DNA from: a bacterium
GTDB lineage: Bacteria > Zhuqueibacterota > Zhuqueibacteria > Residuimicrobiales > Krinioviventaceae
Direction: 5' to 3'
Assembly: GCA_963693055.1 (NCBI GenBank)
Contig: OY843751.1
Location: 4,736,001-4,800,000, forward strand
DNA length: 64,000 nucleotides
Shown: piece by piece, positions 14,699 through 52,100 of the stretch
Layout of the letters: the number at the start of each line of letters is the position of its first letter
How positions within the stretch are numbered: position 1 is the first letter of the stretch
Notes under the pieces: model-generated
Databases searched by the model: none
Told to the model about the DNA's origin: nothing
What the model saw: the letters and a program-made list of their open reading frames with translations, nothing else
Made by a program: the position numbers and the translations under genes

Positions 14699-15811
14699 TT
14701 AGAAAAAAACACCTAAATCTTTTAATTCTGCATCATCCATTGCATCCAAAGTAAACTGGGGCAATGCGGTCTCCATATCAACCGGTTTTATCTCCATACC
14801 TTTAATGCCAACCATTAATCCGGATTTATTTTGGTGCACCAGCTCGACAGCTTTTCTACCAAAACGCTGACCCAGGTTAATATCAAACGCATTTGGTGCA
14901 AGACCACGCAAACTAAAGCCAATATTAGATTGGCGTACACGGCTCAAACCTACACCCAATCCCTGAACAAGAATTCTTTGTATAATAACACCCGTACCGC
15001 CAAGTTTCAGGTTACCATGCGGATCAATTTCAGGATCTTCTGACAACATGGATTTTAATACGCCGTCTTTAGCATCATCAGCAACTGCTTTTTTAAATAA
15101 TGGATCATTTTGATCAAAATTCACACCCTCAGACACAACAATATTGGCATATCCTTTTGCATCATTTATCGATTTAACCTTTTCCACAAGTGCCTGTAAT
15201 TCAAAATTCTTTTCAGGTACAAGAATAATATCAGCACCACTTGCAACACCAGTGAAAAACGCAAGCCAACCAGCTTTACGACCCATAACTTCATTCACAG
15301 AAATTCTTGCATGCGTATCAGCAGAGACTGAAGTGCTTCTAAACGCCTTTGTCGCAAAATCAATAGCAGTGTGCGCACCCAACATCCAATCGGTTTCACT
15401 AATATCATTATCAATACTTTTCGGAATAGCAATTGTAGGAAAATTAATTTTATGCATGCCCCAGGCAGTGTTTACGGTATCGTTACCGCCGGTAGCAATA
15501 ATAGCATCAACACCCAACTTTTTCAGGTTTGCCAACAACTTTTCAGGTGCCCAGGAATTATTTTTTTCAGTAAAAGGGGCAAAACGGGAAGAGCCCAAAA
15601 TGGTACTGGGGGCATCAAAAATGGATAACGCATCGTTGCTGTCCAACGGTACTATATAATCTTCAACATTATCAGCAGCCAAACCTTCAAAAGCTTTTTT
15701 AACACCAATAAAAGTATCACCATATTTAGATGCGCCATGCAATATAGAACGAGCAATTGCCGAATTTATACCTGCGCAATCACCGCCACCGGTCACAAAT
15801 GCAATTTTCAC
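14699..15811 (-). CDS. pfp: Phosphofructokinase (PfkA family) with PPi-dependent signature
   Basis: TGGGDCAG, GGNDT, PKSIDND and EVMGRKAG motifs; GTG start with AAGGAG RBS. Confidence 0.88.
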   Translation of the reverse strand: MKIAFVTGGGDCAGINSAIARSILHGASKYGDTFIGVKKAFEGLAADNVEDYIVPLDSNDALSIFDAPSTILGSSRFAPFTEKNNSWAPEKLLANLKKLGVDAIIATGGNDTVNTAWGMHKINFPTIAIPKSIDNDISETDWMLGAHTAIDFATKAFRSTSVSADTHARISVNEVMGRKAGWLAFFTGVASGADIILVPEKNFELQALVEKVKSINDAKGYANIVVSEGVNFDQNDPLFKKAVADDAKDGVLKSMLSEDPEIDPHGNLKLGGTGVIIQRILVQGLGVGLSRVRQSNIGFSLRGLAPNAFDINLGQRFGRKAVELVHQNKSGLMVGIKGMEIKPVDMETALPQFTLDAMDDAELKDLGVFF

Positions 15812-15872: not shown

Positions 15873-15906
15873 AAAAAAAGACAGACAAAAAATCTTGCCT
15901 GTCTTT
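15873..15906 (-). terminator. Intrinsic terminator
   Basis: Minus strand AAAGACAGGCAA-gatttt-TTGTCTGTCTTT running into a 7-T tract. The G.U pair works only on the minus strand. Confidence 0.75.
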
Positions 15907-16110
15907 CTTTTAGATAGTACATTCGCCCTACCGATGTAATATCTTTTGTGTAGAACTTTTTCCTGTCTTCGTGGTTAGGCAGCCCCCTGCTTTATCTCCA
16001 CGATATGGAAGGAACAAGTTCCCCCATTACAAAGTGTGCTCCTCGAACACACCCCCTCATCTTATATGCGACCCCTCAAACTGTATGTTCACTCTGAATA
16101 ACGGCATATA
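15873..16110 (-). ncRNA. Candidate ~240-nt structured small RNA or leader of unknown family
   Basis: GC-richer than its flanks and bounded by the promoter-like motif at 16109-16149 and the terminator. Hairpins GTGTGTTC/GAGCACAC, and TCGTGG/CCACGA enclosing GCAG/CTGC. Confidence 0.45.
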
Positions 16111-16149
16111 TTAATATAGTGTCTATAATTATGCAAAATCTTACACTTT
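16109..16149 (-). promoter_or_regulatory. Putative ECF sigma promoter, copy 1
   Basis: Minus strand AAAGTGTAAGATTTT-gcataattata-GACACTATATTAATA; both 15-bp blocks are identical to 16866-16906. Confidence 0.65.
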
Positions 16150-16268
16150 ATTTTAAAAATATCACTTTTTTTTATATTTATTTCTTGTATATTAACTTTA
16201 TATATGCTTTTTCTGTCTTTTTGAGGAGATTCTTCAAATTGGATCACAAACGACAAGGTACAAATGAT

Positions 16269-16874
16269 ATGACTCTGGGTGACCTCCTCGACAACTGCAC
16301 CAATCCCAACTCCCCTGTTTGGGAAAAAAGCTGGCAGGAATTCCTCAACCGTTACCAAAATTTTATCTACAAACTTGTTCTGAACCGCTGCAAAAGCTGG
16401 AATTTGCAGCGTATTAAATACCAGTTGCAAGATGAAGTAGACGATATTGTATTTATTGTTATAAAACACCTCATTAAAGACGACTATCGTTTTTTAAAAC
16501 AATTCCAAAACCGTGACAACCCACAGCTTTTTCTGTTATATCTGTCTACCCTTATTAACAGAATTACAAGAAGACATCTGGCAATTCATTTTAACAAAAT
16601 CCTGGATACCCTTGAAGAAGATCAGGCAAAAGACACCTTGAAGGAATTATCACCCGAGGCGGGTTGGGAAATTTATGAAGAACTGGTACAAAGCCTTCGC
16701 AATAGCATGATTAACAAACATCCCAATAACGAACGCAACATACACCTCTTTCTAATGTATACTTGGACAGATATGTCGATTGATATGCTTACCCACAATG
16801 ATTTTTACAAACCAATGGGGCAAAATGCCATATATACATTAATAAATCGCATGAGAAACAAAATAAAAGTGTAA
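16269..16874 (+). CDS. ECF-type sigma-70 family factor (201 aa)
   Basis: Region-2-like WQEFLNRYQNFIYKLV...EVDDIV...DDYRFLKQF...FLLYLSTLINR; region-4-like ERNIHLFLMY...NAIYTLINRMRNKIK. ATG 16269 preferred over GTG 16119. Confidence 0.72.
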   Translation: MTLGDLLDNCTNPNSPVWEKSWQEFLNRYQNFIYKLVLNRCKSWNLQRIKYQLQDEVDDIVFIVIKHLIKDDYRFLKQFQNRDNPQLFLLYLSTLINRITRRHLAIHFNKILDTLEEDQAKDTLKELSPEAGWEIYEELVQSLRNSMINKHPNNERNIHLFLMYTWTDMSIDMLTHNDFYKPMGQNAIYTLINRMRNKIKV

Positions 16875-16906
16875 GATTTTAGTTTTAAAACGACACTATA
16901 TTAATA
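16866..16906 (+). promoter_or_regulatory. Putative ECF sigma promoter, copy 2 (overlaps the sigma stop codon)
   Basis: AAAGTGTAAGATTTT-agttttaaaac-GACACTATATTAATA, ending 28 nt before ATG 16935. Confidence 0.65.
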
Positions 16907-16934
16907 ACTGATAACCGTAAAAGCAAGGTAGTTC

Positions 16935-17345
16935 ATGAGCAGTAGTATAATAGTTCATAAACTTTCGATAGGCAAAGTTTTATCTATAATTCAAGATGCC
17001 CAGATTAAAGAAAAAAGTTTTTTAGAGAATTATCCGGAATCTATAAATTATTACAATAGTTTAAAGGCCCGTTTCAACAAATTTGAAAATGACCCCAATC
17101 TCACAAATTCGATATTCAACAGTATCCCGAAGCAGTGTTGTCAGGCCAACAAATCCTTTTTGAAAGATAATGATGATTTTTTTATCGCATATACTGTTCT
17201 ATCAAAAAAGGAAGACATTCACATTAACAATGCTAAACAGTTTATTCATCATTTAAATAACTGCTATTGGTGTTTCATAGAATATAACCAGTTTATAAAT
17301 GATGAATATTTTACCAACAAAGGACTTGAGACGGGGGTAATTTAA
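16935..17345 (+). CDS. Soluble protein with a zinc anti-sigma-like HxxxCxxC motif
   Basis: HLNNCYWC plus upstream QCC; no TM segment; directly follows the sigma gene. Confidence 0.65.
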   Translation: MSSSIIVHKLSIGKVLSIIQDAQIKEKSFLENYPESINYYNSLKARFNKFENDPNLTNSIFNSIPKQCCQANKSFLKDNDDFFIAYTVLSKKEDIHINNAKQFIHHLNNCYWCFIEYNQFINDEYFTNKGLETGVI

Positions 17346-17346
17346 T

Positions 17347-18456
17347 ATGCGTAAATTTAAAATAACATTTGAACAAATTCTGGAATATATAAAAAATCCA
17401 GATACTCAAACAATAACCATTAGTGAGCTCAAAGAAAGCAACCCTGCTTGTTTTTCTCTTTTCACTATGATAGATAACAGTCTGAAACATGCGAACCTGC
17501 AAAATATTGACACAGAAAACACCAATACGGGATATCAGGAACTCGAAATGATAATTCTTGAACAATTGAGTGGCAATATTACCAAGCACAACTCTGAAAG
17601 ATTTTTATCTCTCATTACCAGTCATCCTGATTATTTTAGAAGAATTCTGGATACCTTTGACACGGAATCCATTCAGGCAGCTTCATTGGAAAATATTGAA
17701 ATTGCAGATAATAACACTTTGTTTGAAATAATTAAAGGCCATGAAAGCAAAAAAGAAGCTGGTAAATCATTCAGCCTTTTACATTTTAAATCAAGTTTAA
17801 AAAGCTTTTTCCAAAACCTTTTTATGCAAAAAAAGCCTCATTATGCTTTAATCTCCATAGTTGTTTTGATCTTTTCCATTATTACATCCAAAACTTTTTT
17901 TCAGGAAACTGCTCACAATCCTGTTTATACAAAATATTTCCAATCAGCCAATTTACCTTGTGAATATTACGAAACCTCTACCAGGGGCAATAGTGTATCG
18001 TTAGATACAGACACTCAATATAACAAGACACTCAATCAGTATAAATTTGCAATGGCAGATTATATCCAAAAAAATTATCAAGATGCAAAAAAATCACTCA
18101 ACTCAATCATAACTGATATTGAATCCGGTTCTACGCAATCTTTGCACACTACTACAAATGGTAAACAACTGTTAAGAGATATTTATTTTTATACAGGTAT
18201 TTGCGATCTGGCACTTGCCGGAAAATCGCTTGACACCTCTTTAATTGAATCTGCTTCTGACAGATTCAATTCTGCAAAAAAACTGGTTCTTGAATCCAAC
18301 ATGAAAGGAGGTGACAGAGAATTCTTTTTCATGGGTTTAACTTTTAACCTGCTGGGGAACGATTCGCGCTCGCTTGAATATTTGGGGAACATTCAGGAAA
18401 ACAGTATCTATTACAGAGACAGTCAAGTTATTGTATCACAGCTAACGAACCCATAG
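17347..18456 (+). CDS. Single-pass membrane anti-sigma-like protein with extracytoplasmic TPR-like helices
   Basis: ~165-aa N-domain, TM YALISIVVLIFSIITS after KK, then AMADYIQKNYQDAKKSL and FFMGLTFNLLG TPR-like segments; starts 1 nt after the previous stop. Confidence 0.65.
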   Translation: MRKFKITFEQILEYIKNPDTQTITISELKESNPACFSLFTMIDNSLKHANLQNIDTENTNTGYQELEMIILEQLSGNITKHNSERFLSLITSHPDYFRRILDTFDTESIQAASLENIEIADNNTLFEIIKGHESKKEAGKSFSLLHFKSSLKSFFQNLFMQKKPHYALISIVVLIFSIITSKTFFQETAHNPVYTKYFQSANLPCEYYETSTRGNSVSLDTDTQYNKTLNQYKFAMADYIQKNYQDAKKSLNSIITDIESGSTQSLHTTTNGKQLLRDIYFYTGICDLALAGKSLDTSLIESASDRFNSAKKLVLESNMKGGDREFFFMGLTFNLLGNDSRSLEYLGNIQENSIYYRDSQVIVSQLTNP

Positions 18457-18466
18457 GAGACAACGA

Positions 18467-18631
18467 ATGGAGTTATTTTACCTGTTAATGTCTGGTGTTG
18501 TTGCAGCTGTTGCCAAAAGGCTAATTGATATAAAAAGCACCCAAATGGAAACCGGCATCATTCAGCCCCAAGGAGGAGATGATCCTGATCCGCCGCCACC
18601 ACCACCAGACCCTCCAGATCCTAATTGCTAA
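18467..18631 (+). CDS. Unannotated 54-aa peptide MELFYLLMSGVVAAVAKRLIDIKSTQMETGIIQPQGGDDPDPPPPPPDPPDPNC
   Basis: AGGAGA RBS at 18455-18460, 6 nt before the ATG; fills the space between the upstream stop and a terminator. Confidence 0.75.
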   Translation: MELFYLLMSGVVAAVAKRLIDIKSTQMETGIIQPQGGDDPDPPPPPPDPPDPNC

Positions 18632-18638
18632 TTTATAT

Positions 18639-18668
18639 GGTCCTGCCTTTGTTATGCAGGGCCTTTTT
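18639..18668 (+). terminator. Intrinsic terminator after the peptide gene
   Basis: GGTCCTGC-ctttgttat-GCAGGGCC-TTTTT. Confidence 0.7.
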
Positions 18669-18684
18669 CGTTAAAACCTGCCTG

Positions 18685-18714
18685 TTGCATTTGAATATTT
18701 TTTGATATATCTTG
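18685..18714 (+). promoter_or_regulatory. Putative housekeeping promoter for the CHAT gene
   Basis: TTGCAT-N17-TATCTT(G). Confidence 0.45.
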
Positions 18715-18742
18715 TATATTAAAAAATATTGTATCTGTAAAA

Positions 18743-21700
18743 ATGAAAAAACTACTTTCAACATTACTCCTCTTTTTATCAAGCTGTCTTGTTTTTGCAA
18801 ATCAAGATAATCTGGAATATTATACTTTTCTCAAAACCCTGCAAAGTCTTCCAGACAGCACACAACTTGAACACACTTTGAATTATTTATATGACCATCC
18901 TGACGTTTGGAAAGTATATGAAAAAGCATATAGATTGTTTGTATACACGGATCAAAAAGACAAGGCATACACCTTTTACAAAAACCTGGCAGACGACAAA
19001 CGATATTCTCTCTATGCAAATTTATACCTTGCAAAACTAAACAGAGAAGACAATAAAATTGATATTGCAAATCAGCACCTGGTATCCGCATTTGAAATAG
19101 GGCCAGACTATTATATAATCTCAGAATATGCAAAAAATCATACCGAATCAATTGTTATTGATTCAATAATAACAAGCCACGCAGATAACAGCTCATTATT
19201 AATAGTAAATGCCTTGAGAAAATACTACAAGGGAAATTACGCAAAAGCAATTCCCCTATTCAAACAAATCCCACAATTAAACAGCAATCTGAACTTACAG
19301 TTTATGCTTGGTTATTGTTACACGCTTTCGAACCAGTATGAGCAAGCAGATTCGGTTTATGACGAAGGATATAAAGAAGCAATAAAACAAAAAAATATTG
19401 ACGGCCAAATAATTGCTTTACAGGCACTTGGTAAATTGGCCATTGCCCAGCACGACTTGAATAATGCAGAAATATTATTGAATAAAGCCTTGAAAGTATC
19501 TGACGATATTATAGACTATAGGCGCAAAATAACCACTTTAAATGAACTGGGCAATTTAAAACTGAAACAGGGCAAATTAGATTCAAGTATGGTGTATTAC
19601 AATCTTGCTCAATCCTATTCCGATAGATTCAAAGGGAAAATTCAACTTGCCCAGATCCTGAGAAATGGATACAATTACCATCTTAACCATCAATTCTCTC
19701 AAGCCATTCAGTGCTACAGAAAATCAATTGAATTGATAGACCCAAACGACCGGAACCATCAATTGCGAATTAAAAGTCTGCTTGTAACACTTTATGAACG
19801 CTTCGGTATGAGCAGTCTCATGGACCAAATGCTTGCTGAATGTAAAGTGTTAGCAAATGATAACAATTACACCAGTACAAAAAAATGGGTAGAACTTCAG
19901 GAAATAAAAAACCAGCTGTCATTAGACAAAATAGACACTCAAAGGGAAAAACTGTTTGAACTATATAAATATTATAAATCATCAGAAAATGCAAATTTAT
20001 ACAGTTGTCTGAATACACTTGCATATTCTTTTATTATTGAGCTTGATTATAAAAAAGCACAAACATTTTATCAGCTAGCGCTTTATGAGGCAACCAGAAC
20101 AAACAACCAGAGCAAAAAAGCATATTACCTAACCCGCCTCGCATTTATGAATATCAAAATTGGTGAAATAAACAACGCCATGGCAAGGCTAGACTCGGCA
20201 AAACAAATAATTGCCAGAATTGATGATTCTTATATGTCCAGATATGTTTTTAGAGTAACAGGGCTTGCTTTTGAAAAAACGGCCAACACTGATAGCGCAC
20301 TGTACTATTATTACAAGGCAATACCACATACAGAACAGCTTCGTAATAAACTATCGGCAGAAGATCTAAGAATTGGAGCATTCTCAAGTGATGCCGCTAT
20401 TTACAGAGGAATTGCCCGCTGCTATTCACTAAAGTATGACACAACCCATGCCCACTCTTTATTAGATAGCCTGTATAAATACGAAGAAAGCTTTAGAAGC
20501 CGTGCCTTAAAAGACAGAATGGATGATCGCAACATTCTTTCCGGCTCTGTCAAACCAACTAAAAAATACAAGCAAGCAATGGCAATGATTGCAGGCTTGC
20601 AACAAAAGCTGCGAAAACAGGCAGGAACAAAACATTCCGAATCTGAATGGGACCAGTTGATGGGCGATCTTGAAACTGCAAAATACACATTAATTCAGCA
20701 GCGTTTATTCATGATAGACAGCTTAAAAATCAGTCAAAGCATGAATCCCGGAACATCTGCAAATTTATCTGAAATACGCAAACAACTAGAAAAAAATAAT
20801 GCGGGCATGCTGCAATACCACATTGATACTGAGACATCTTTTGTTCTGGTTGTAACCCCAGATACAACCCATATAGTGCAGCTTTCAATCACTCAAGATT
20901 CACTTTCAATGAAAATAAAAAAGTTAATGTCTCCATTGCACAATTTGCAAGATCAAAATCACAATATCCCATTTTTTGCCAAAACAGCACATCAACTTTA
21001 TGCGGAAATATTAAATCCGATTGAAAAAGAGATCAGATTACCAGAAAACCTGCTGATCGTTCCAGATGGCCCCCTAATGAACCTTCCCTTTGAGATGCTT
21101 CTTACCCAAAAACCAAACAAGGCCGCTTTTACCCCCTTTGATGAACCCGACTATAGCAGTTCTTTTTTACTGAACCATTATTCATTATTCTACAGTCCTA
21201 CGGGTATTGTATTAAAAAGTTCTGGCTTGAAATTACTCAACAGGCCCAATATGATGGTTTTTGCAAATCCTTTTTCAAATGAAGATGAAATTTCAGACAA
21301 TGTATTACAATACCGTTCACGTACCGGTTGGAATTTTCAGGCCCTTCCCTTTGCAGAGCTTGAAGCAAATGAAATATCAAAATTAACAAGCCGAGTCAAA
21401 CTCTATAAACGACAAAATGCAATAGAAACATATTTTACCCAAGATGCATCAAAATTTGACATTCTCCATCTTGCTACTCATGCTTTTGTTGACACTTCTT
21501 TTGAAGCTTTTTCAGGTCTCATTCTTGCCTCAGAACAGGACTCTACGAATGATGGAATTTTAATGGGCTATGAAATAGGGAATCTTGATCTGAATTGCGA
21601 ACTGGTTACACTGAGCGCTTGCGAAACCGGTAGAGGCAAAAACATTGCTGCTGAAGGCATATTGGGATTACCCCGTTTGTTCATGGGGGCAGGAGCCAAA

Positions 21701-22033
21701 TCTGTACTCATGTCACATTGGAAAGTTGACGACCGGTTCACATCAAAACTGATGCCTCTATTTTATCAATATTATTTAACTAAACATATGGATAAAGCAG
21801 ATGCGCTTGCAAATGCCAAGAGAGATTTGATCAAATCATCGCAAGAAATAAATGGAGAGCATTACCAGCACCCCTTATACTGGGCAGCATTTACCTTGTA
21901 TGGAAATCCTGATAAAATCACAAACACATCACCCATTTTACCAGCAGCAATATTGGGTTCAATTTTTATTTTTGCGATACTTGGCGGGGCTGTAATTAAA
22001 AAGAAAAAAAGCATAAAAAAAGCGGACATTTAA
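18743..22033 (+). CDS. TPR-CHAT domain protease (caspase-like, clan CD), exported, with C-terminal membrane anchor
   Basis: Signal peptide MKKLLSTLLLFLSSCLVFA; TPR array; LLIVPDGPLMNLPFE, LHLATHA (His), VTLSACETG (Cys), SHWKVDD, HPLYWAAF; C-terminal TM followed by KKKK. Confidence 0.92.
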   Translation: MKKLLSTLLLFLSSCLVFANQDNLEYYTFLKTLQSLPDSTQLEHTLNYLYDHPDVWKVYEKAYRLFVYTDQKDKAYTFYKNLADDKRYSLYANLYLAKLNREDNKIDIANQHLVSAFEIGPDYYIISEYAKNHTESIVIDSIITSHADNSSLLIVNALRKYYKGNYAKAIPLFKQIPQLNSNLNLQFMLGYCYTLSNQYEQADSVYDEGYKEAIKQKNIDGQIIALQALGKLAIAQHDLNNAEILLNKALKVSDDIIDYRRKITTLNELGNLKLKQGKLDSSMVYYNLAQSYSDRFKGKIQLAQILRNGYNYHLNHQFSQAIQCYRKSIELIDPNDRNHQLRIKSLLVTLYERFGMSSLMDQMLAECKVLANDNNYTSTKKWVELQEIKNQLSLDKIDTQREKLFELYKYYKSSENANLYSCLNTLAYSFIIELDYKKAQTFYQLALYEATRTNNQSKKAYYLTRLAFMNIKIGEINNAMARLDSAKQIIARIDDSYMSRYVFRVTGLAFEKTANTDSALYYYYKAIPHTEQLRNKLSAEDLRIGAFSSDAAIYRGIARCYSLKYDTTHAHSLLDSLYKYEESFRSRALKDRMDDRNILSGSVKPTKKYKQAMAMIAGLQQKLRKQAGTKHSESEWDQLMGDLETAKYTLIQQRLFMIDSLKISQSMNPGTSANLSEIRKQLEKNNAGMLQYHIDTETSFVLVVTPDTTHIVQLSITQDSLSMKIKKLMSPLHNLQDQNHNIPFFAKTAHQLYAEILNPIEKEIRLPENLLIVPDGPLMNLPFEMLLTQKPNKAAFTPFDEPDYSSSFLLNHYSLFYSPTGIVLKSSGLKLLNRPNMMVFANPFSNEDEISDNVLQYRSRTGWNFQALPFAELEANEISKLTSRVKLYKRQNAIETYFTQDASKFDILHLATHAFVDTSFEAFSGLILASEQDSTNDGILMGYEIGNLDLNCELVTLSACETGRGKNIAAEGILGLPRLFMGAGAKSVLMSHWKVDDRFTSKLMPLFYQYYLTKHMDKADALANAKRDLIKSSQEINGEHYQHPLYWAAFTLYGNPDKITNTSPILPAAILGSIFIFAILGGAVIKKKKSIKKADI

Positions 22034-22071: not shown

Positions 22072-23127
22072 TTATCCAATAGCAATCATACGATCAACGG
22101 CTGTTTTGGCTCTTAGCCGAATATCTTCTGGCACATCTATTTGGTACTGCATCAATTTCAATGCATCCCGGGTTTCTTCAAGGGTTATCTCATTCATATG
22201 TGGACAACGAACACTGCAAAGCCTGAGCATCTCCTTGTCAGGATTCTCGCCGGCAATATTATCACCCATGCTACATTCGGTCAACAACAGATATCGTTCC
22301 GCCTTTGTCTCTTGCACATATTTGATCATACCGGTTGTACTGCCCGCATAATCCGAAGCCTCAATAACATCAGGACTGCATTCCAGATGCGCCAACACCA
22401 CCACATCAGGAAATTGTTTACGTACATTAGCAACATCCTCGGGTGTAAATTGTTCATGTACTTCACATTTTCCTGACCATCCTACAATCTGATAATCCAA
22501 CCCATTGTCCCGCTTTGATACATCTGATGGATCTTTTGATGGAAAGATTATGCGCTTTCCGGTTTCCTGTGCAATATTTTTTGCCATAAATTCATCCGGT
22601 AAAAAGATAATGGCCTCATCGCCAAAGGATTCGACAACCTGAACAGCATTGCCCGAGGTACAGCAAACATCACTTTCTGCTTTTACATCAGCATACGTAT
22701 TCACATATGTCACTACCGGCACACCGGGATACTCTTTTTTTAATTTTCGTACATCTTCAGCAGTTATGCTTTCTGCCAAAGAACAGCCACCCTTTGGAGA
22801 TGGCAACAAAACCGTTTTATCAGGACTCAAAATTTTGGCTGTTTCAGCCATAAATCTTACACCACAAAAAACGATAACATCTTTATCCGTAGTAGCGGCA
22901 AGGCGTGACAGCCCCAAAGAATCTCCGGTATAGTCTGGCACTGAATGAAACAAAGCGGGTTCCATATAGTTATGGCCCAGAATAACGGCATTCCGTTCTT
23001 CTTTGAGTTGATTTATCTCCATGGCAAGTTCCGCTTTGATGCGCAGTTCAACATCCGGGACAATACCTTTGAGTTTTATTTTCAATTTATCAAACATTTC
23101 ATCAACAGTTTTAGCTGCAATAGCCAT
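22072..23127 (-). CDS. nadA: Quinolinate synthase
   Basis: GHNYM, GDSL, FCGVRFMAETAK, GCSLA, YVNT, CEVH, AHLEC and CPHM motifs. Confidence 0.96.
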   Translation of the reverse strand: MAIAAKTVDEMFDKLKIKLKGIVPDVELRIKAELAMEINQLKEERNAVILGHNYMEPALFHSVPDYTGDSLGLSRLAATTDKDVIVFCGVRFMAETAKILSPDKTVLLPSPKGGCSLAESITAEDVRKLKKEYPGVPVVTYVNTYADVKAESDVCCTSGNAVQVVESFGDEAIIFLPDEFMAKNIAQETGKRIIFPSKDPSDVSKRDNGLDYQIVGWSGKCEVHEQFTPEDVANVRKQFPDVVVLAHLECSPDVIEASDYAGSTTGMIKYVQETKAERYLLLTECSMGDNIAGENPDKEMLRLCSVRCPHMNEITLEETRDALKLMQYQIDVPEDIRLRAKTAVDRMIAIG

Positions 23128-42310: not shown

Positions 42311-45300
42311 ATGCGGTCATTTATTACAGGTATCCCGATTGTTCTAATAATACTGGTATTGATACCCAATGTTTACGCTGGTAATCCCCCTACCCATACA
42401 ACGCTGTTATATTCCAGCAGTCTTGATAGCGACAATGATCCTGCTGTTGGTCAGATAACTAACAATAGCGGTCAATTTATTACAGGGTCCGGCTGGAAAG
42501 CAACAAACGAAAGCAGTCAGCTCATGATCACCTTGCCTTCAGGGCTTCCCCTGGAAGGTACTTTTTCAGTTCAGGTAACCAATTTCAATCCGGCTGTACA
42601 AAATATTAGCGACAAACAGCAGATCATTAACCTGTATTCTCAAGCAAACGGAAGTAAAGATATTCTGGGCACCCATGGTTCCTGGATCAATATTCGTACC
42701 GGTACCGGTTATTCTGATGGAGCAGGTATGGCCGGTTACAAAATGCTTGCCGCCTATGACGGACAACGACACGAAGATCGCTATATGCATGACGCAACCT
42801 GGAATGTAAACCGGACTTATGAATTTAAACTGGTTTGGAATGAAACCAGTGTCTGGACCATTGTGGATGATGTTGTACAGGGCGAAATGGAAATGACCGG
42901 TTCACCAACTGAGCTTTTCCGTTACATCTTTTTAGGTACCGACAATGTATATGTAGCCCAACCCGGACCTATTTACAAAAATATGCGCATATATTCTTCA
43001 CAAGACCCTTCTAGCGATGTATTGCTCTTTACCGATATAACGAGTCAGGCCGGTGTTGGCGGCGTTGATCCTGAAGGCTATGGCCATGGTGTTAATTTCA
43101 GCGACTTTAATCTGGATGGCTATCTCGATATCATGTCATCCAATGCGGGTGGCCCAACCATGCCTGAAGAATTTTATCTCAATCAGCAAAACAACACCTT
43201 TAGCGAGATTGCTTCATCCAGAAATATCTCTGATGAAGGCCATACGCATGGTATTATCAGTGCCGACTGGGACAATGATGGTGATCTCGATGTATTTATG
43301 ACCAATCAACCCGTAAACGCAACCAATCCACCTCCAGGCAGGAACCGCATGTATCGCAATGACGGGAATGGCAATTTTACAGACGTTTCGGATCTGGTTG
43401 GTATAGAAGAAGAATATTTTTTCAGCCGTGGTGCGGTAGCCTCCGATATTAACAATGACGGCTGGCTTGATCTGTATGTATTGAACTGGGGTGATCCCAA
43501 TGTTTTATACTTAAATGATGGTGACGGTACATTTACGCGAGTAAACCGTGGCACAGACGGCCCCGCAGGTGATGAAAATGGCCGCCAGGGCGTTACTGCC
43601 GCAGATGTTGATAATGATGGCGATATAGACTTTTATGTCTGTCGTCGTGAAGCAGAAAACTGGTTATTCATCAATGACGGTAACGGAAATTTCACCAATG
43701 AAGCTTCCGCCCGTGGTGTAAATGTGGGTGATCGCTCACATGGTGCCGCTTTTGTTGATATTGATAATGATGGTGATCTTGATCTGTTCATCATGAACTA
43801 TGCGCTGGGTGGAACAGCTTCTATCCCCAGAATGAGCGCGTTTTACAATAATGGTAATGGTTACTTTACCGACCAAACCGACAAATACAATATTTATGTC
43901 AGTGGTTATTCATTAATCTTTGGCGATGTAGACAATGATGCCGACCAGGACATGTATCTTATCAGAAATGATGAAAAAGAAGAAGGTACAACTCCCAAGC
44001 TTTATTTAAACGATGGTAACGGCAACCTGACACTTCGAAATATTGCAGGTGCATCTCCAGGAATCTCGGGTGCTCGTGGAGCAGGATTTGGTGATATTGA
44101 TAACGACGGCGATCTTGATGCTTATATTGCAGCCGTTTATACCGATAATGTCTTATTACGTAACGACCTTAGCAGCGACAATCATTATATTGATGTATTG
44201 TGTATTGGCCCTGGTGGTGATTACGGTGGTTATGGCTCCAAAGTCAGTGTGTATGAATCGGGTCATATGGGTGACGTCAACTATTTGCTAGGCTATCAGG
44301 AAGCAGTTACAACCGTTGCTTACATGTGTCAAAATCAAACTGCATTGCATTTTGGTCTTGCACAAAACACAGCCTGTGATATCAAAGTAGAATTTACAAA
44401 CGGACAAATTGCAGAATATTATTCTGTTTCAGCAGACCAGTTCTTTGAGGTAACTGCTAACCCACCGGTACCTACATCCATAGCACGGGTTTCCAATGCT
44501 GTCCTTTCCGGTCCCGCCGGACAAGTACTGGCCGATTCAGCAAAAATTCAGGTAGTAGATGAAAGCGGACGCGGTGTTCCTAACCATACTGTCTCTTTTC
44601 AGATAACAAACGGTGGTGGTACACTGAATGGCTCTACCCGCACCCAGGTTGACACAACAACAGACAACCACGGATATGCAGCAATCGGTTGGAAAATTGG
44701 AACAGATGTAAATATTATTAATACATTATCTGTCAGCGCCCAAAACGAAGGCATTGATCTGATTGGATCACCCATGAATTTCACAGCCAATGTGAATCCT
44801 GGTGCGGATACACTCATTACAAAACATGCCGGTGATTTACAAAACTCGGTCCCGGAAATTCCTCTGCCAGATTCAATCCAGGTACGGATTCATGATACAT
44901 GGGGTAATCCTCATGCCAATGCTAATGTCAACTTTACTGTCATCAGCGGTAACGGAAACATTGATGGATCAGTTTCCAAAGTTGTACAAACCAATGCGGC
45001 AGGTATTGCTTCAGTACAATGGACGCTTGGAGAAGCAGAAGGTGAAAACGCTCACTCTTTAAAAGCCTCTCTGGCTTCAGAACCTCTGACAAGTGTAACC
45101 TTTTTGGCCTCAACTTCTTTGGCTCCTATAAAAACTTTGAAATATATTTCCGGCAATAATCAAACCGGCACAGTAACACAAGACCTTGCAAACCCCTTTG
45201 TTGTGCAGTTATTAGACAGTCTGGGGAATCCCCGTGGTGGATTTGATATACTCTTCAAGGTGACCGGTGGAAGCGGTAATCTTGGCGGTCTAGCAGAACA

Positions 45301-48300
45301 AACCGTTAAAACAGACGTAACCGGTAAAGCCTCAGTCACACTAACCCTGGGACAAGCAGCCGGTACAAACCTCAACACTGTTGAAGCAAGCTATGCGGAA
45401 TTGGATGATAAAATAATTTTCACCGCTTCTGCAACATCAGGCACTGCCAGCAAGATTAACAAAACAAGTGGTGACAACCAGAGCGCAGGTGTAGGGCAAA
45501 CATTGACAAATCCTCTCAAAGTCAGGGTATTGGATGTCTATAATAATCCAGTTTCAGGGCATAATGTAATCTTTACTGTCAATAACAACAAAGGTTTGGT
45601 TAATAACAACTTGTCGGCAACGGTACAAACCGATGCCAGTGGCTATGCAACAGCAGACTTTTCAATGGATAATGAGCCGGGAACGCATTCAGTAACGGTA
45701 ACTTCAACATATAACAGCGTTCCGTTAACAGGATCGCCCATCACATTTACTGCTACTGCTACATCAGAACCAACCACACTCGTCAAAGTATCCGGAGACA
45801 GCACAACCGGTATCGTTGGTCAACCCATAACTTTGCCGCTTCAGGTCAAAGTTACCGATGATAATGGTTTTCCGGTCAGCAACTATCCTGTTACTTTTGT
45901 ATCTGAAAGCGGTGGAGCAACATTTGAAGGCAATCTTCAAATTCAACAAACCACCAACGAACAGGGTATTGCTTCAGTATATCCAACACTGGGTGAACGT
46001 GTTGGGCCGTATGTATATATTTTTACCGCTAAAGCGTTTTTTGAAGGTGGATCTCACCTGAATAGTTCTCCGTTGACATTTCGTTTATCAGCAAAAAGCA
46101 CCCGTGCCGAAAAAATTGAGCTAATTGCCGGCGCAAACCAAAACGGTCAGGCGGGTGAATATCTTGCATCTGCAATTCAAGTGCTGATTACAGACAATGA
46201 GAATAATGTAATAGCCAATCATAATGTAAACTTTACCGTTAAACAGGGCAGTGGTAAATTAGGTACCAGTAAAGCCAATAGCCTTACTATAAAATCCGGG
46301 GCAAACGGTGTTGCCAAAGTTAATTTCATGCTTGGCAGCGAAATTGGCGACAGTGTTCATGTAGTAGAGATCACCTCGGATGATGGCATAGAGGTTCTCG
46401 AAAACTCGCCCCTATATGCTTATGGCAGTGCCGAATACGGGCAACCGAACGCGGATAGTTCAAAGCTTTATATTTCAGATTCCGTTGTACCCGCAGACGG
46501 CACCTCAGAATTGCTGGTATCTGCACAATTAAAAGATTCTCAGGGACTACCGGTTCCCGGTGAAACGGCTGAATTTATGATTACAGGTGATGGAAATACC
46601 ATTACACAATCAGAAGGCCCTTCTGATGAAAATGGTATGGTCAGCGCACGAATCACTTCTACCGTTGCACAAAGTAAAACAGTAACCGCAAAAATAACAG
46701 ACAAAGCAATAACCATTAATGACACCAAAGTTGTTGAATTTACAGCCGGTCCAGCGGATGCTATTGAAATCGCATCTGGTGATGATCAATCCGGTACTAT
46801 CAATTCAGTTTTGCAGCAGCCGCTCATCGTTCAGGTTGTTGATGCAATGGGTAATGCCATATCAAATCATCCGGTACAATTTGCAATCGCCACAGGCAAT
46901 GGATCACTTGATCCCACACAGGTTGAAAACACGAATGACTCGGGTAAAACCCAAACCAACTGGATTTTGGGTCCACAAATTGGCTCTCAAACGGTAACCG
47001 CAACAGCACAAGGTATTGCCCAATCCGTTACCTTTACCGCAACCGCGCAAATGCCTGGTACGGCATACATTACCAAAGTTAAAGGGGATGAACAATTTGC
47101 TTCACCCGGTACAATTTTTAGCGATTCTTTAACAGTCAAGATTGTTGATGAAAACAATAAACCCATCAGCGGCACCCCGGTTAAATTCAGTATAGAACAA
47201 GGTGATGCCTCTTTTACCAGCATTTCATCCATAAACAGCGATAGTTATGGTTTAGCCAGAATTCAACTTTTGGCCGGACAACTGTTGGGTACTGTAACTA
47301 TTAACGCGTCAATCAATGAAACATCAAGCGTAGATTTTCTCTGCTCGGTTTCCTCCTCCCTACCCGATACGCTGATCCACATTCTGGGAGACAATACAGA
47401 AGGTACAGTCGATGCTACCATTTATCCGCTTACTGCCAAAGTGCTTGATAATAACGGAGTAGCTATCTCGGGTGTACCCATAACCTTTGCAAGCTTGACA
47501 GCTGGCGGACAAGTAATAGATGAACAACCCATTCGAACCACCAGTAACGGTCAGGCATCCGCACGGGTAAAACTGGGAACCATAGCAGGTGAATATATTT
47601 TTACCGCATCTAATGCGTCAATCAAAGGCTCGCCTGTCACCTTTACGCTTAAAGCGCTGCCAGACAATGCATCTGACATTGTCGTTAAAAGTGGCAATGA
47701 GCAGACCGGTGAAGCACTTGCAACCCTGGCAGATTCACTTACAGTGCAGGTTGTAGATGAGTATCAAAACGGTGTTGCCGGTGTACAGGTCGTATTTACA
47801 GTAGGTTCCGGTCAGGGCAGCATTCAAGCCGAGTCTCCCTTAATTACCAATAATAATGGCCTGGCTTCCGCAGAATGGACATTGGGCGCATCTGGCACAC
47901 AGCAAGTAAATGTAACCTCTGGTGTGCTTCCTGGTAAATCAGCCCAGTTTACAGCCAATTTAAAAGCGAATAATCTACCGGTCATTCAGGTTGTTACAGA
48001 TACAACTATAACCGAAAACCAGACTTTGATTTTTACTGTACAGGCGAACGATCCTGAAGGTACTGCTGTAACATTGTCTGCATCCAATCTTCCGGCAGGA
48101 GCGGAATTTGATTCACTTGAGACCTGGCAATTCAGTTGGACACCCGGATATAATTCACAGGGAGATTATACCATTCGCTTCACTGCAACGGATGAAAATG
48201 GCGGTACCGCAATTCAAGATGTCGCTCTGCATGTTGCAAACATGAACCGAAAACCGGTTGTACAATCCACAATTCCGGAACAGACAACCCTTTCTCTGAA

Positions 48301-49096
48301 TTTATATGCAGTATCGGCATTTGAAGTCCATGTAACAGATGCTGATAATGATCCGTTAACATTCCTGTGGTTTGTAGACAACAATCCGGTCAGCACACAG
48401 CAAGATTCAAACAGATTGATCATTCAGCCAAACGATTCCTGGCCGCAGCAATTCAAAGTTGATGTAAACATAACCGATGGAATTGATACTACTCATCATG
48501 CATGGTCAATCGATATCAGTAGCAGCATTGAACTTGCCGCATTTGAAGCGTATACTGACAAGGATCTGGTTACCATTACCTGGGAGACAGCAAGTGAGCA
48601 TAATACGGCAGGCTTTAACTTGTATCGTGCTCCGGGTAAACTGGGACCCTATACCAAAATCAATTCAGAGTTAATTCTGCCTGTGCCTGGTGGTGAATAC
48701 GAAATCCAGGACAAGCCCGGTGCAGAGACATTAAACTGGTATTACAAACTTGAAGAGATGGAATATTCTGGTCGCACACAATCATTTGACCCAATACAGA
48801 TACAAATTGCTGTTCCTACAGACAATATATTGCACCAGAATTATCCAAATCCGTTCAACCCAACAACAACACTGCAATACGAGTTGAACAAAACGCAGCA
48901 AATTGATATTTATATCTTTAACATACACGGTCAACTGGTCCGCACAATCTATTCAGGCAAACAAAAAGCCGGATATCATCAAATCATGTGGGACAGTAAA
49001 AACGACAACGGTATTTCTGTCACCTCTGGTATCTATTATTGCTGTATGGTAGGTACGGATTACCGAAATACCATTAAATTAGTTCTATTAAAATAA
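42311..49096 (+). CDS. 2261-aa adhesin-like protein: LamG-like N-domain, FG-GAP/VCBS, ASPIC/UnbV, multiple Big_1 (invasin/intimin-like) repeats, cadherin/He_PIG-like, CTD
   Basis: Signal peptide; DxDNDGDxD repeats; repeated SGxxQxG...PxxVxVxDxxGNP...WTLG units; HQNYPNPFNP. Confidence 0.88.
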   Translation: MRSFITGIPIVLIILVLIPNVYAGNPPTHTTLLYSSSLDSDNDPAVGQITNNSGQFITGSGWKATNESSQLMITLPSGLPLEGTFSVQVTNFNPAVQNISDKQQIINLYSQANGSKDILGTHGSWINIRTGTGYSDGAGMAGYKMLAAYDGQRHEDRYMHDATWNVNRTYEFKLVWNETSVWTIVDDVVQGEMEMTGSPTELFRYIFLGTDNVYVAQPGPIYKNMRIYSSQDPSSDVLLFTDITSQAGVGGVDPEGYGHGVNFSDFNLDGYLDIMSSNAGGPTMPEEFYLNQQNNTFSEIASSRNISDEGHTHGIISADWDNDGDLDVFMTNQPVNATNPPPGRNRMYRNDGNGNFTDVSDLVGIEEEYFFSRGAVASDINNDGWLDLYVLNWGDPNVLYLNDGDGTFTRVNRGTDGPAGDENGRQGVTAADVDNDGDIDFYVCRREAENWLFINDGNGNFTNEASARGVNVGDRSHGAAFVDIDNDGDLDLFIMNYALGGTASIPRMSAFYNNGNGYFTDQTDKYNIYVSGYSLIFGDVDNDADQDMYLIRNDEKEEGTTPKLYLNDGNGNLTLRNIAGASPGISGARGAGFGDIDNDGDLDAYIAAVYTDNVLLRNDLSSDNHYIDVLCIGPGGDYGGYGSKVSVYESGHMGDVNYLLGYQEAVTTVAYMCQNQTALHFGLAQNTACDIKVEFTNGQIAEYYSVSADQFFEVTANPPVPTSIARVSNAVLSGPAGQVLADSAKIQVVDESGRGVPNHTVSFQITNGGGTLNGSTRTQVDTTTDNHGYAAIGWKIGTDVNIINTLSVSAQNEGIDLIGSPMNFTANVNPGADTLITKHAGDLQNSVPEIPLPDSIQVRIHDTWGNPHANANVNFTVISGNGNIDGSVSKVVQTNAAGIASVQWTLGEAEGENAHSLKASLASEPLTSVTFLASTSLAPIKTLKYISGNNQTGTVTQDLANPFVVQLLDSLGNPRGGFDILFKVTGGSGNLGGLAEQTVKTDVTGKASVTLTLGQAAGTNLNTVEASYAELDDKIIFTASATSGTASKINKTSGDNQSAGVGQTLTNPLKVRVLDVYNNPVSGHNVIFTVNNNKGLVNNNLSATVQTDASGYATADFSMDNEPGTHSVTVTSTYNSVPLTGSPITFTATATSEPTTLVKVSGDSTTGIVGQPITLPLQVKVTDDNGFPVSNYPVTFVSESGGATFEGNLQIQQTTNEQGIASVYPTLGERVGPYVYIFTAKAFFEGGSHLNSSPLTFRLSAKSTRAEKIELIAGANQNGQAGEYLASAIQVLITDNENNVIANHNVNFTVKQGSGKLGTSKANSLTIKSGANGVAKVNFMLGSEIGDSVHVVEITSDDGIEVLENSPLYAYGSAEYGQPNADSSKLYISDSVVPADGTSELLVSAQLKDSQGLPVPGETAEFMITGDGNTITQSEGPSDENGMVSARITSTVAQSKTVTAKITDKAITINDTKVVEFTAGPADAIEIASGDDQSGTINSVLQQPLIVQVVDAMGNAISNHPVQFAIATGNGSLDPTQVENTNDSGKTQTNWILGPQIGSQTVTATAQGIAQSVTFTATAQMPGTAYITKVKGDEQFASPGTIFSDSLTVKIVDENNKPISGTPVKFSIEQGDASFTSISSINSDSYGLARIQLLAGQLLGTVTINASINETSSVDFLCSVSSSLPDTLIHILGDNTEGTVDATIYPLTAKVLDNNGVAISGVPITFASLTAGGQVIDEQPIRTTSNGQASARVKLGTIAGEYIFTASNASIKGSPVTFTLKALPDNASDIVVKSGNEQTGEALATLADSLTVQVVDEYQNGVAGVQVVFTVGSGQGSIQAESPLITNNNGLASAEWTLGASGTQQVNVTSGVLPGKSAQFTANLKANNLPVIQVVTDTTITENQTLIFTVQANDPEGTAVTLSASNLPAGAEFDSLETWQFSWTPGYNSQGDYTIRFTATDENGGTAIQDVALHVANMNRKPVVQSTIPEQTTLSLNLYAVSAFEVHVTDADNDPLTFLWFVDNNPVSTQQDSNRLIIQPNDSWPQQFKVDVNITDGIDTTHHAWSIDISSSIELAAFEAYTDKDLVTITWETASEHNTAGFNLYRAPGKLGPYTKINSELILPVPGGEYEIQDKPGAETLNWYYKLEEMEYSGRTQSFDPIQIQIAVPTDNILHQNYPNPFNPTTTLQYELNKTQQIDIYIFNIHGQLVRTIYSGKQKAGYHQIMWDSKNDNGISVTSGIYYCCMVGTDYRNTIKLVLLK

Positions 49097-49176
49097 GTCA
49101 CTGTTTTGAAAAAAAAACTAAATTCCTTATATTGCCATGTAAGCGTGGTATAAACAAAATGTTAGCGGGTATGCTC

Positions 49177-52100
49177 ATGTATAAAAAAACATTTAGGTTA
49201 TTCTCAGTTGCTTTGGTCTTTCTTTGTGCATCTATAGCTACAGCACAAGTCCCACCCACCCATACATCTGTTCTCTATCAGGATGATCTGGTCAGCGCGG
49301 GTCAAAAAGATATTGGCTATATTACAAACAGCAACGGTTCATTTCAAGCCGATGGGTGGAAAACTACCGGCCCCAGCAGCAAACTGGTTATAGAATTGAA
49401 TGAATTTTTACCGCATGAAGGTACAATGCAGGTAAAGATCAAGAATCTGAACCCGGCCACTCAGGTGAATAACGATTGGAGTTTAATATCCTTATGGTCC
49501 AGAGCGAATGGAAGCTGGCGCGATATGAACAGTACTCCCGGTTCTTATGTACTATTGAAAACTGAACCGGATGCACAATACATATCTGGCGGTAATGTAG
49601 CTTGGAAGCTGGTAGAAACTCCGTTTTATGGTGGAGATACCGGCAACCCCAATGCCATGAACATCTCTAATACAACCATGCAAACATGGGATGCTACCAT
49701 GGAGCATACATTCAAGATCATCTGGAACCCTCAATACCTTTGGATCATTATTGATGGTGAAATGGTAAAAAGAAAAGCATACAAAGACCAGATTGAAAAC
49801 TTTGAATACATTTTCCTGGGTTCAGACAATGAATACGGTTCTATGGCTGGTCCAACATTTACCGACTTGCAGATCCTGGTACCTTCAAGCAGTTTCAGTT
49901 TTGAAAATGTCACCAAATCTGCTGATCTGGCTTCAGATATGATTTTTGGCGAACAAGGGGTTTCTCTTGTTGATCTGAACAATGACGGGCTGGATGATAT
50001 TTATCTTAATTACTGTAACACTGCAGATGGTATTCCCAATGCTCTTTACTTAAACAGCAATTCACAACTCTTTACCGAAGATGCCAGTTCAGCGGGTTTA
50101 GACAATACTAACTGTTCAAATTCTTCGACTTTTGCAGATTTTGATGGTGATGGCGACCTTGACCTATTTATCGCCAAAGTAAATTCACCAAATAAATTAT
50201 ATATCAATAATGGCAGCGGAATATTCAGTGATCAATCCACATCCAGAGGTATCAGCTCACTGAACTATAGCACCGTAAATGCCATGGCTATTGATATTGA
50301 AAATGATGGCGACCTTGATATTTTTGCAGTAAGCAGCACCCAGAATCATGAATTATATGTAAACCAGGGCAACGGCACATTTGCACTCGAAACCCGCGGC
50401 ACCAACAATCCCACAGGCGCGGTTATGGGCGCGGTTGCCGGTGATGTTAACAACGATGGATTTGTAGACATTTTTATTGCACAGCGTAGTGCAGCGTGTG
50501 GATTACTCATTAATGATGGCACAGGTAATTTCTCTAACGAAGCAGCAAGCAGAAATGCCAACCAATCAATCAAAGCCAATAATCCCACAATGATGGATTA
50601 TGACAATGATGGTGACCTTGACATCTTTCTGGCACCTTCCAGTACATCAACAACCCCTGATCCCAGGGTACTGGTACTTAAAAACAATGGTAACGGTGTA
50701 TTTACCGATATTTCCAACACAGCAAACATCAATATTGAAGCTTATGGCCTGGTATCAGGAGATATTGACAATGATGGTTATGAGGATTTGTATGCTGTAC
50801 GCAGTAACCGTCGCGATGTTGTTGATGACCATTCTTCACGTATCTATATCAACAATGGTGATGATACATTTACCGCACTGACAGGTACAGGCGCAGAAGC
50901 AATCTTTTCAGACGGCCGCGCCGGAATCATGATCGATTACGACAATGATGGTTTATTGGATCTTTATGGTGTTTCCAAAGGAAACCTTTATAATGGTTCA
51001 AGTTACGATACAATTGACTTTGGTCGTAACCAATTATTAAAAAATACAACAGAAACACCCAACAACTGGCTCAAAGTTGTTGTAAATGATATAGCTGGTA
51101 ATCCCGATGGGATGGGTGCCAAAATTTGGGTTTACGAAGCAGGACGCAATTTCAGCAATGACTATCTGATCGGATATCGTGATGTTTATGCGATGCAGGG
51201 ATATACCTCACAGGGTTCAATGACTCAACATTTTGGTGTGGGATCAAACACTCAGGTTGATGTAAAAATACAAATGCCGGGCGAAGAAGCCAAAACTATA
51301 AATAATGTAGTTGTAAACCGCACAGTCGAGTTTAATCCTTCACTAGTGGTACCGCACCATATTAATGTATCCGGTCACGATCAGACAGGTACCGCAGGAA
51401 ACACTCTTGCAAATCCATTACAGGTATATGTCTATGCAGAAGATTCTACTCCCGCACCGGGCATTACCGTACAATTTGATGTAACCGCCGGTGGTGGTAC
51501 ATTAGACGGAAATACAGAAACCCAGATTATCACCACTACAGATGAAAACGGACTTGCACAAGTAACCTGGAAAATGGGAACAACTGCCGGTCAGGAAAAC
51601 ACTGTACGTGTAACTTCAGAATATAACGGTTCAGCGCTTGAAGGTTCTCCTTTTGACGCCAGCATTACACCGGTGGCAGGCGATCCTGCTAAACTGGTAA
51701 AATCATCTGGAGACGTACAAACCGGATATATTTTACAGTTTCTGGACAATCCAATCATTGCTCAGGTAACGGATGCATTTAATAATCCGGTATCAGGACA
51801 TGATGTAATTTTTACAGTATCAACAGGTGGTGGCTCGGTTGATCAATCCGGCACAACCACATTCCAGGCACAGACCGATCAGGATGGTCTAGCACAGGTT
51901 AACTGGCTTTTGGGTGAAACCATTGGCACACAAACTTTGAATGCAACATCCACTTTTGACAGCAATCCATTAACAAACAGTCCACTGTCTTTTAGTGCTA
52001 CCGGTTTAGCCCCGCAGCAAAAGCTGCAATATCAATCGGGTAATTACCAGACCAAATTGATCAACAGTGCTCTTGATCCTTTTACAGTCAAAGTTGTAGA

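Follow-up and report, generated by a model that had tools for sequence, protein, structure and literature searches.

Does a separately encoded protease of the TPR-CHAT type release a sigma factor of the extracytoplasmic function (ECF) group by cutting a membrane-bound anti-sigma protein? This question is raised by a locus in a 64,000-nt stretch of a bacterial genome (the window: contig OY843751.1, positions 4,736,001–4,800,000, assembly GCA_963693055.1), in which five co-oriented open reading frames (ORFs) on the + strand are flanked by pfp (Pfam PFK, 14699–15811) and nadA (22072–23127). Comparison with related genomes revealed a conserved gene module, which probably forms a split regulated-proteolysis switch resembling DdvS/DdvA of Myxococcus xanthus; in it, cleavage of the membrane-bound ORF3 product by the TPR-CHAT protease, on the C-terminal side of Arg213, would set the ECF sigma factor free. 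The features that carry this reading are as follows.

16239..16874, + strand: 211-aa sigma factor of the ECF type, whose subfamily lacks a dedicated Pfam model (136 relatives; Sigma70_r2; sigmaE-like fold)
16935..17345, + strand: ORF2, soluble protein resembling a tandem anti-sigma domain, with a CHCC-type zinc site (C69, H106, C110, C113)
17347..18456, + strand: ORF3, zinc-less tandem anti-sigma-like domain, predicted transmembrane (TM) helix (aa 167–185), disordered linker and TPR domain
17983..17985, + strand: Arg213 of ORF3, candidate site-1 cleavage residue (column conservation, disorder)
18467..18631, + strand: 54-aa microprotein with a hydrophobic N-terminus, a basic stretch and an acidic Pro-rich tail
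18743..22033, + strand: TPR-CHAT protease, 1096 aa, with an N-terminal signal-like segment and a predicted C-terminal TM segment; E874 (21362), H913 (21479), C960 (21620)

Conservation of the gene module

A preliminary description of this DNA had noted five co-oriented, AT-rich genes between pfp and nadA. Genes, orientation and flanks were confirmed, but the AT-richness is modest, with a GC content of 31–36% across positions 16001–20000 and 38–39% towards the end of the CHAT gene; the genome as a whole has 39.4%. The survey of other genomes covered all 45 sigma loci with E ≤ 1e-38, drawn from 167 genomes of the phylum. Counting only loci with sufficient downstream DNA, the sigma gene was followed by ORF2 (the zinc-finger gene) in 41/44 loci, by ORF3 (the membrane TPR gene) in 36/42 and by the TPR-CHAT gene in 24/31; these counts include kin that are not independent and merge this subfamily with a sister arrangement (7 loci) in which two other genes separate anti-sigma from protease. 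Several contigs too short for this count still include the beginning of the protease gene. The module proposed earlier from a single sequence is real: it recurs in other genomes, which share the gene set and its order, and conservation extends to the catalytic dyad, the zinc ligands, Arg213 and the promoter motif. Among 80 wider CHAT loci, this sigma family was present in 1 only.

The sister arrangement (L105, L107, L126, L127, L129, L130 and L134) contains the same sigma factor and promoter, followed by tandem zinc proteins, two further genes and CHAT. The extra genes encode an uncharacterised membrane protein of 450–530 aa and a protein of ~290 aa, and the CHAT protein is N-anchored and does not carry the conserved acidic residues. 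Another variant, locus L033 of genome G014, has one peptide gene followed by two tandem TPR-CHAT genes.

The sigma factor and its predicted anti-sigma partners

The sigma gene most likely starts at TTG 16239 (211 aa), the start that fits both P0001 and the ortholog from the same genus; GTG 16119 was disfavoured. A full HMMER search returned 136 relatives, a word-index protein search returned the protein itself only, and the family profile matched 76 of the 167 genomes of the phylum at E ≤ 1e-8 (a tally that includes G158 and G162). The window's protein had no sigma-family match in Pfam or NCBIfam, and Sigma70_r2 was matched by 22/91 family members. The structure model had a predicted local distance difference test (pLDDT) score of 93.7, and its top Foldseek matches were ECF sigma factors, with E. 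coli sigmaE first (E 0.005); the locus is thus served, as is DdvA, by a sigma factor of the ECF type.

The HxxxCxxC motif was found in 41/41 ORF2 homologs versus 0/28 ORF3 homologs (cytoplasmic part), and the ORF2 zinc ligands C69, H106, C110 and C113 were invariant in 34 aligned homologs, so that ORF2 has the motif and the upstream ligand of a zinc anti-sigma protein. ORF2 itself did not match Pfam zf-HC2, and an ESM Atlas search with it gave no usable match. In 5 sister loci, the counterparts of ORF2 and ORF3 each carried two HxxxCxxC motifs, and one sister protein passed the Pfam zf-HC2 cut-off. By hhalign, ORF2 aligned with sister ORF2 (99.9%), sister ORF2 with the N-terminal part of sister ORF3 (95.8%, E 8e-9), and the N-terminal part of ORF3 (ORF3-N) with the zf-HC2-bearing sister domain (94.7%, E 6e-8). 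From these sister-protein alignments we infer four anti-sigma units on two proteins, with one zinc site kept in this lineage. Both ORF2 and the cytoplasmic part of ORF3 look like tandem anti-sigma domains, of which only ORF2 keeps the zinc ligands. In the ORF3 model, a pair of three-helix units is followed by the TM helix, a disordered loop and then a TPR domain (Z 15.9, rmsd [root mean square deviation] 2.1, 130 aligned).

Pairing of the sigma factor with the ORF at 16935 (ORF2), which the preliminary description had singled out for complex modelling, was favoured by a three-chain model of sigma, ORF2 and ORF3 with zinc, judged by a pass mark that 116/157 solved and 2/215 mismatched pairs reach. 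ORF2 scored 0.79 against 0.30 for the best of 3 controls, a score that may pass through likeness, because complexes of zinc-binding anti-sigma proteins with ECF sigma factors of like kind are already solved. Runs agreed in at least 78% of contacts, with a partner pLDDT of 81–83, and the predicted interface joins sigma residues 130–184 (numbering from 16266) to the ORF2 zinc unit, plus some ORF3-N contacts. ORF2 is therefore predicted to bind sigma-4. The same model is what an alternative would draw on in which ORF2 is the sole true anti-sigma protein and senses oxidation or zinc, and ORF3 would act with the protease as an independent sensor or scaffold in the envelope, with no release by cutting: sigma binding was seen for ORF2 only, HxxxCxxC is absent from all 28 ORF3 homologs, and 4 loci keep sigma and ORF2 with no ORF3 found. 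ORF3, however, retains two three-helix units and the Arg loop and adjoins ORF2 in 36/42 loci, and we consider this alternative very improbable.

The protease and a candidate cut site in ORF3

The protease contains a full CHAT domain (Pfam E 4.8e-60). Its His/Cys dyad, reported earlier as intact, is indeed so: H913 and C960 were invariant in 20/20 aligned homologs and aligned with DdvA H862/C907. All 27 CHAT proteins inspected from this subfamily had a hydrophobic C-terminal segment, and most had a hydrophobic N-terminal one. Signal peptide, TM helices and topology were called from hydropathy and charge only; on these calls the protease would be exported and face the outer part of ORF3, which fits its proposed role as the likely site-1 protease, and Arg213 can now be named as a candidate cut site. 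The Arg213 column held Arg or Lys in 26/28 ORF3 homologs, 18–38 aa past the TM helix, and pLDDT in the ORF3 model was <50 at residues 212–219, around Arg213. This residue, in a predicted disordered outer loop near the membrane, is the likely site-1 cut residue.

The conserved difference between the subfamily and its sister concerns both enzyme and substrate. E874, directly after a conserved LP motif, was acidic in 27/27 subfamily CHATs and Q or L in 5/5 sister CHATs, D937 and E944 showed nearly the same pattern, and the sister anti-sigma proteins had no Arg in the stretch matching the Arg213 region. In the clan CD proteases MALT1 and gingipain, an acidic residue on alpha1 binds the P1 Arg (PMC4357240), and Glu874 may be the acid of the corresponding P1-Arg (S1) pocket. 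Asp937 had been a candidate for this pocket and was dropped in favour of E874 on the basis of the same clan CD literature. Three matches to the M50 family (PF02163), each a candidate RseP, lay above the cut-off in the genome. A second CHAT protein, of ~2814 aa, is encoded at G000:C1:5784425-5792908, and many other members of the class have CHAT-bearing frames of about this length (~2800 aa).

A promoter-like motif and its predicted targets, including a G-run RNA

Regulation of the module was approached through the following features.

16869..16901, + strand: internal promoter motif overlapping the sigma stop codon, 5' of ORF2-ORF3-peptide
16114..16146, − strand: divergent promoter motif copy (-35 TGTAAG, 16 nt, -10 GACACTATA)
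18639..18668, + strand: terminator-like hairpin separating the peptide and protease genes
15873..16109, − strand: non-coding RNA of ~237 nt, predicted to depend on sigma, containing four 4–5-G runs and ending in a terminator hairpin (15873–15910)

The promoter model consisted of two blocks; six loci, inspected visually, supplied the starting motif, and 43 loci were used for its refinement. The refined motif has -35 TGAGAG, a 16-nt spacer (38/43) and -10 nnC(A/T)CT(A/T)(T/A)A, with TGTAAG as the -35 in this genome. Both promoter-like copies noticed earlier were recovered, and a third was found elsewhere in the genome. At the 3' end of the sigma gene, the motif exceeded the shuffles' 95th percentile in 36/43 loci, and in 35/43 when each locus was left out in turn; since this copy lies at the sigma stop codon, it would drive ORF2-ORF3-peptide and not sigma. 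A terminator-like hairpin followed the gene in the slot after ORF3 in 8/26 loci, compared with 15/208 control windows. Divergent copies of at least 12 bits were located 5' of sigma in 15 of up to 56 sigma loci (short ones skipped), preceding short RNAs or genes for secreted, capsule-export-like or unknown proteins. Motif placement suggests that the sigma factor reads this motif, in agreement with the earlier proposal that it drives transcription of its own anti-sigma, the peptide and the RNA. Covariation between sigma-4 and the -35 box was weak: loss of the VxD Asp pairs with TGTAAG/TGAAAG in two lineages, and L049 is a counter-example. The possibility that the two inverted copies of the motif delimit an invertible element was rejected, because the 11-nt middle differs, relatives have single copies and the third copy lies elsewhere. 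A 17-nt near-identical stretch 5' of both the sigma gene (16179–16195) and the protease gene (18706–18722) is possibly a shared housekeeping promoter element.

The strongest promoter sites genome-wide were those of this locus, the RNA and a secretion-like operon. The latter, type II secretion-like and adjoining insertion elements, is preceded by the third copy (G000 1519212–1519244). By appearance, the operon (G000:C1:1519212-1530694) encodes an ATPase, a secretin, pseudopilins and a prepilin peptidase, followed by large secreted-looking proteins, and a perfect inverted repeat lies immediately 5' of the motif copy. In two related genomes (L101 and L103), the divergent promoter stands before a polysaccharide-export-like and a sugar-transferase-like gene, a possible capsule output.

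The region behind the divergent copy folds with z = −6.3. Because the RNA has four single-base indels between this genome (G000) and G001 of the same genus, the region is taken to be non-coding, and a short ORF inside it was ruled out. Rfam returned nothing credible for the window stretch or for the loci of 5 relatives. Counterparts with three or four G runs were present beside sigma in G001, G004, G008, G009 and G017. A promoter-only search placed a copy far from sigma in G014, which aligns with the G017 copy and differs from it in one hairpin by exchange of an A-U pair for G-C, and a promoter-plus-G-run pattern placed one upstream of pfp, unlinked to sigma, in G006. The latter pattern matched 4/125 genomes, all within the family, with 0 control matches. 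Together, promoter and G-run RNA were found in 8 of the family's 19 genomes, with two copies far from sigma, and none was found outside the family; a pattern of promoter plus AGGGG-TTCG matched 14/167 genomes but was discarded, as outside the family it occurred no more often than its reversed control.

The 7 RNAs (1,360 nt) contain 26 runs of at least 4 G, versus 0.35 per 250 nt genome-wide, and the G runs had a mean unpaired value of 0.48 versus ~0.3 for other G. Pairing of the RNA with six local mRNA stretches was no better than with shuffles, and no C-rich partner RNA emerged. G-quadruplex folding was rejected, since the stems are not outcompeted, as was a CsrB-type role: CsrA is present in the genome, but the RNAs hold only 1–5 GGA each. 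The RNA may act as a multi-site sponge through its G runs, a tentative proposal to which we give somewhat less than even weight.

The Pro-rich microprotein

Between G000 and G001, the genes for sigma, ORF2 and the peptide differ mainly at third codon positions (16/25 differences in the peptide), which indicates that the microprotein is under coding constraint. The slot after ORF3 was filled in 26/29 loci by unrelated proteins of 39–225 aa. At least 4 Pro within 15 residues occurred in 20/26 slot proteins, a figure inflated by the script's choice of the most Pro-rich candidate. Eleven short slot peptides have a hydrophobic N-terminus with 0 Lys/Arg before and 2–6 after the hydrophobic stretch; 9 of the remaining proteins have no hydrophobic segment, 3 are exported-looking and 3 are unclear. 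By the positive-inside rule, the charge pattern of the 11 short peptides puts the tail in the cytoplasm. Loci L037, L044, L117 and L061 share a ~190-aa slot family with GEPPxGPGxGExPFP-like tails, with a lipoprotein-type signal in L061 and no signal in the other three.

These data bear directly on the preliminary description, in which the peptide was exported by a Gly-Gly or Sec route and activated the protease in a quorum-type manner. A GG precedes the tail here, AVA at residues 14–16 is a possible signal-peptidase site, and some relatives have signal peptides or lipoprotein signals ahead of the Pro tail. However, the GG position was not conserved among peptide homologs, the C39 exporter family (PF03412) had no match in this complete genome (control positive in 7/14), and the charges around the hydrophobic stretch of the 11 short peptides place the tail inside. 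Double-glycine export was accordingly abandoned, and an exported activator as a whole appears unlikely.

Pro-rich small proteins also stand beside related CHATs with no copy of this sigma nearby (L047, L062, L068 and L069) and therefore seem tied to the protease, yet none was found in G127 and G128. That the Pro tail is a ligand which activates the protease TPR and is released by breach or lysis falls just short of an even proposition in our estimate; that it is unrelated to the protease's site is somewhat less probable again. A more elaborate version, which we rate as improbable, is a membrane-breach alarm: a Pro-tailed marker on the cytoplasmic side would reach the outward CHAT upon failure of the cell's own inner membrane or lysis of kin, the two-protein anti-sigma would be cut, a new class of G-run small RNA would be the core output, and more marker would be made as feedback.

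Alternatively, the microprotein might be a securin-like inhibitor whose acidic-then-Pro tail occupies the active site of CHAT without being cleaved; sigma would make more of it and so bring about shut-off, and its loss would be the signal. It shares a predicted terminator-ended transcript with both anti-sigma proteins, and 5 of the slot proteins are, or may be, exported-looking. Securin blocks the related protease separase by an acidic, Pro-ended pseudosubstrate, EIEKFFP (PMC6858450). Such an inhibitor needs the protease's compartment, however, and the motif is predicted inside in 20/26 slot proteins; moreover, the microprotein is missing from some complete-looking systems. We therefore doubt a securin-like role and rank it below the activating ligand released by breach or lysis. 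Ribosome stalling on poly-Pro as an attenuator of the protease gene was rejected, since the stop-to-hairpin distance varies and 18/26 loci have no strong hairpin.

A model for sigma release

In the split-switch reading that we favour, ORF2 would grip sigma-4 through its zinc unit and touch the cytoplasmic domain of ORF3, as in the three-chain model, and ORF3 would hold sigma and ORF2 together at the membrane, with sigma-2 as the probable contact. Upon a signal, the presumed outward-facing, membrane-anchored CHAT protease would cut the Arg213 loop, the TPR cap would fall off, and an M50 (RseP-like) protease encoded in the genome would then cut the TM helix. Free sigma would read TG(A/T)(G/A)AG-N16-nnCACT and transcribe ORF2-ORF3-peptide up to the terminator, closing a reset loop, as well as the G-run RNA and lineage-specific targets, here the type II secretion-like operon. 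The sigma and protease genes seem to be driven by other promoters. The weakest step would be the Pro tail as a ligand of the protease TPR that arrives only upon membrane breach or kin lysis, together with the RNA as a sponge.

Several observations weigh against this model. Adjacent CHAT was absent from 7/31 long loci, and in G127 and G128 the protease is located elsewhere in the genome, and neither part is accompanied by a Pro-rich peptide. Within this subfamily, ORF2 and ORF3-N could not be aligned directly (probability <2%). The score of the three-chain run covers ORF2 as partner, and it fell to 0.00 once sigma was replaced, so ORF2-ORF3 binding by itself is without model support. The contrast in E874 and Arg is a single split between two clades, Glu874 was placed in the pocket from sequence position only, and the sister anti-sigma proteins retain an Arg-Pro ~10 residues upstream of the matching stretch. 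The Pro motif is predicted to be cytoplasmic, apart from the protease, in 20/26 slot proteins, and only 11/26 G runs are mostly unpaired (>0.5). The motif was not found within 1.6 kb of the orthologous secretion-like operon in G004, and G001 yielded no closely related counterpart of the operon; therefore this target may be strain-specific. In the known counterpart, CHAT activity of DdvA was never shown and its site-1 role is a hypothesis (PMC11506125).

Apart from the locus, the window contains, at 42311–55977, two tandem secreted proteins of ~2270 aa, whose repeats are of the FG-GAP and Big_1 Ig types and whose tails are FlgD-like.

Comparison with known systems

The preliminary description had taken Csx29/Csx30 as the nearest analogue. 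The closest known system is instead DdvS/DdvA, an already described trans-envelope TPR-CHAT anti-sigma (PMC11506125; PDB 8ROT). DdvA without TPR-CHAT is cut by RseP, and DdvA is called the only characterised anti-sigma with TPR-CHAT (PMC11506125). Both systems have an ECF sigma factor, a CHCC zinc anti-sigma domain, a single TM helix and an outward TPR-CHAT with a His-Cys dyad, and for both a cut in a membrane-near linker is proposed, followed by RseP; an RseP-type site-2 protease is available here through the three PF02163 matches. DdvA is one polypeptide, whereas this locus spreads the zinc domain, the membrane TPR protein and the protease over three genes. The CHCC domain is on soluble ORF2 (41/41) and not on the TM protein ORF3 (0/28), and TPR-CHAT is a separate ORF, set apart by one gene and a terminator. 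The locus additionally has a G-run RNA and a microprotein rich in Pro. The DdvS/DdvA regulon is a CBASS (cyclic oligonucleotide-based antiphage signaling system)/CRISPR defence island, and neither CBASS nor CRISPR genes were found in the window here. We conclude that the locus probably works like DdvS/DdvA but is not a member.

In the type III-E CASP system (Csx29, Csx30 and CASP-sigma), a separate TPR-CHAT likewise cuts a flexible anti-sigma loop and sigma motifs occur within the locus (PMC10028731). That system is cytoplasmic and gated by Cas7-11 and target RNA, whereas this one is predicted to be trans-envelope. Models for cas and CBASS genes matched 0 of the 26 window proteins, two of which (the ~2200-aa Ig-repeat proteins) were scanned with Pfam only, and neither Cas7-11 nor a CRISPR array was found in the window, in accordance with the CRISPR independence claimed earlier. 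ECF54 resembles the locus in having CHAT-domain proteins in the sigma's gene context, but it is described as being without an anti-sigma, whereas the locus has two anti-sigma-like proteins (PMC8999054); the two are set apart here by description. For the RNA, the nearest analogy is RosA of B. subtilis, a 229-nt sponge with three G-rich regions; like RosA and RsaI of S. aureus, it is a stand-alone RNA of ~230 nt with several G-rich regions (PMC8216469). It differs from both in having no sequence-family match and an ECF-type motif in front.

The literature searches returned DdvS/DdvA, ECF54 and the CHAT systems linked to CRISPR, but nothing that is both split and trans-envelope, although the 2021 ECF reclassification and supplements may list such contexts. 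As far as the searches reached, two parts are undescribed: a two-protein anti-sigma with three of four zinc sites lost, and a G-run RNA that is linked to the sigma factor and belongs to no known family. The DdvA paper proposes CHAT as the site-1 protease for a membrane anti-sigma without showing it (PMC11506125). At this locus the enzyme is encoded apart from its putative substrate, and a candidate cut site (Arg213), the catalytic residue Cys960 and a candidate pocket residue (Glu874) can be named, which makes the Myxococcus idea testable; a defined promoter motif could serve in a reporter, and the neighbouring gene supplies a candidate ligand.

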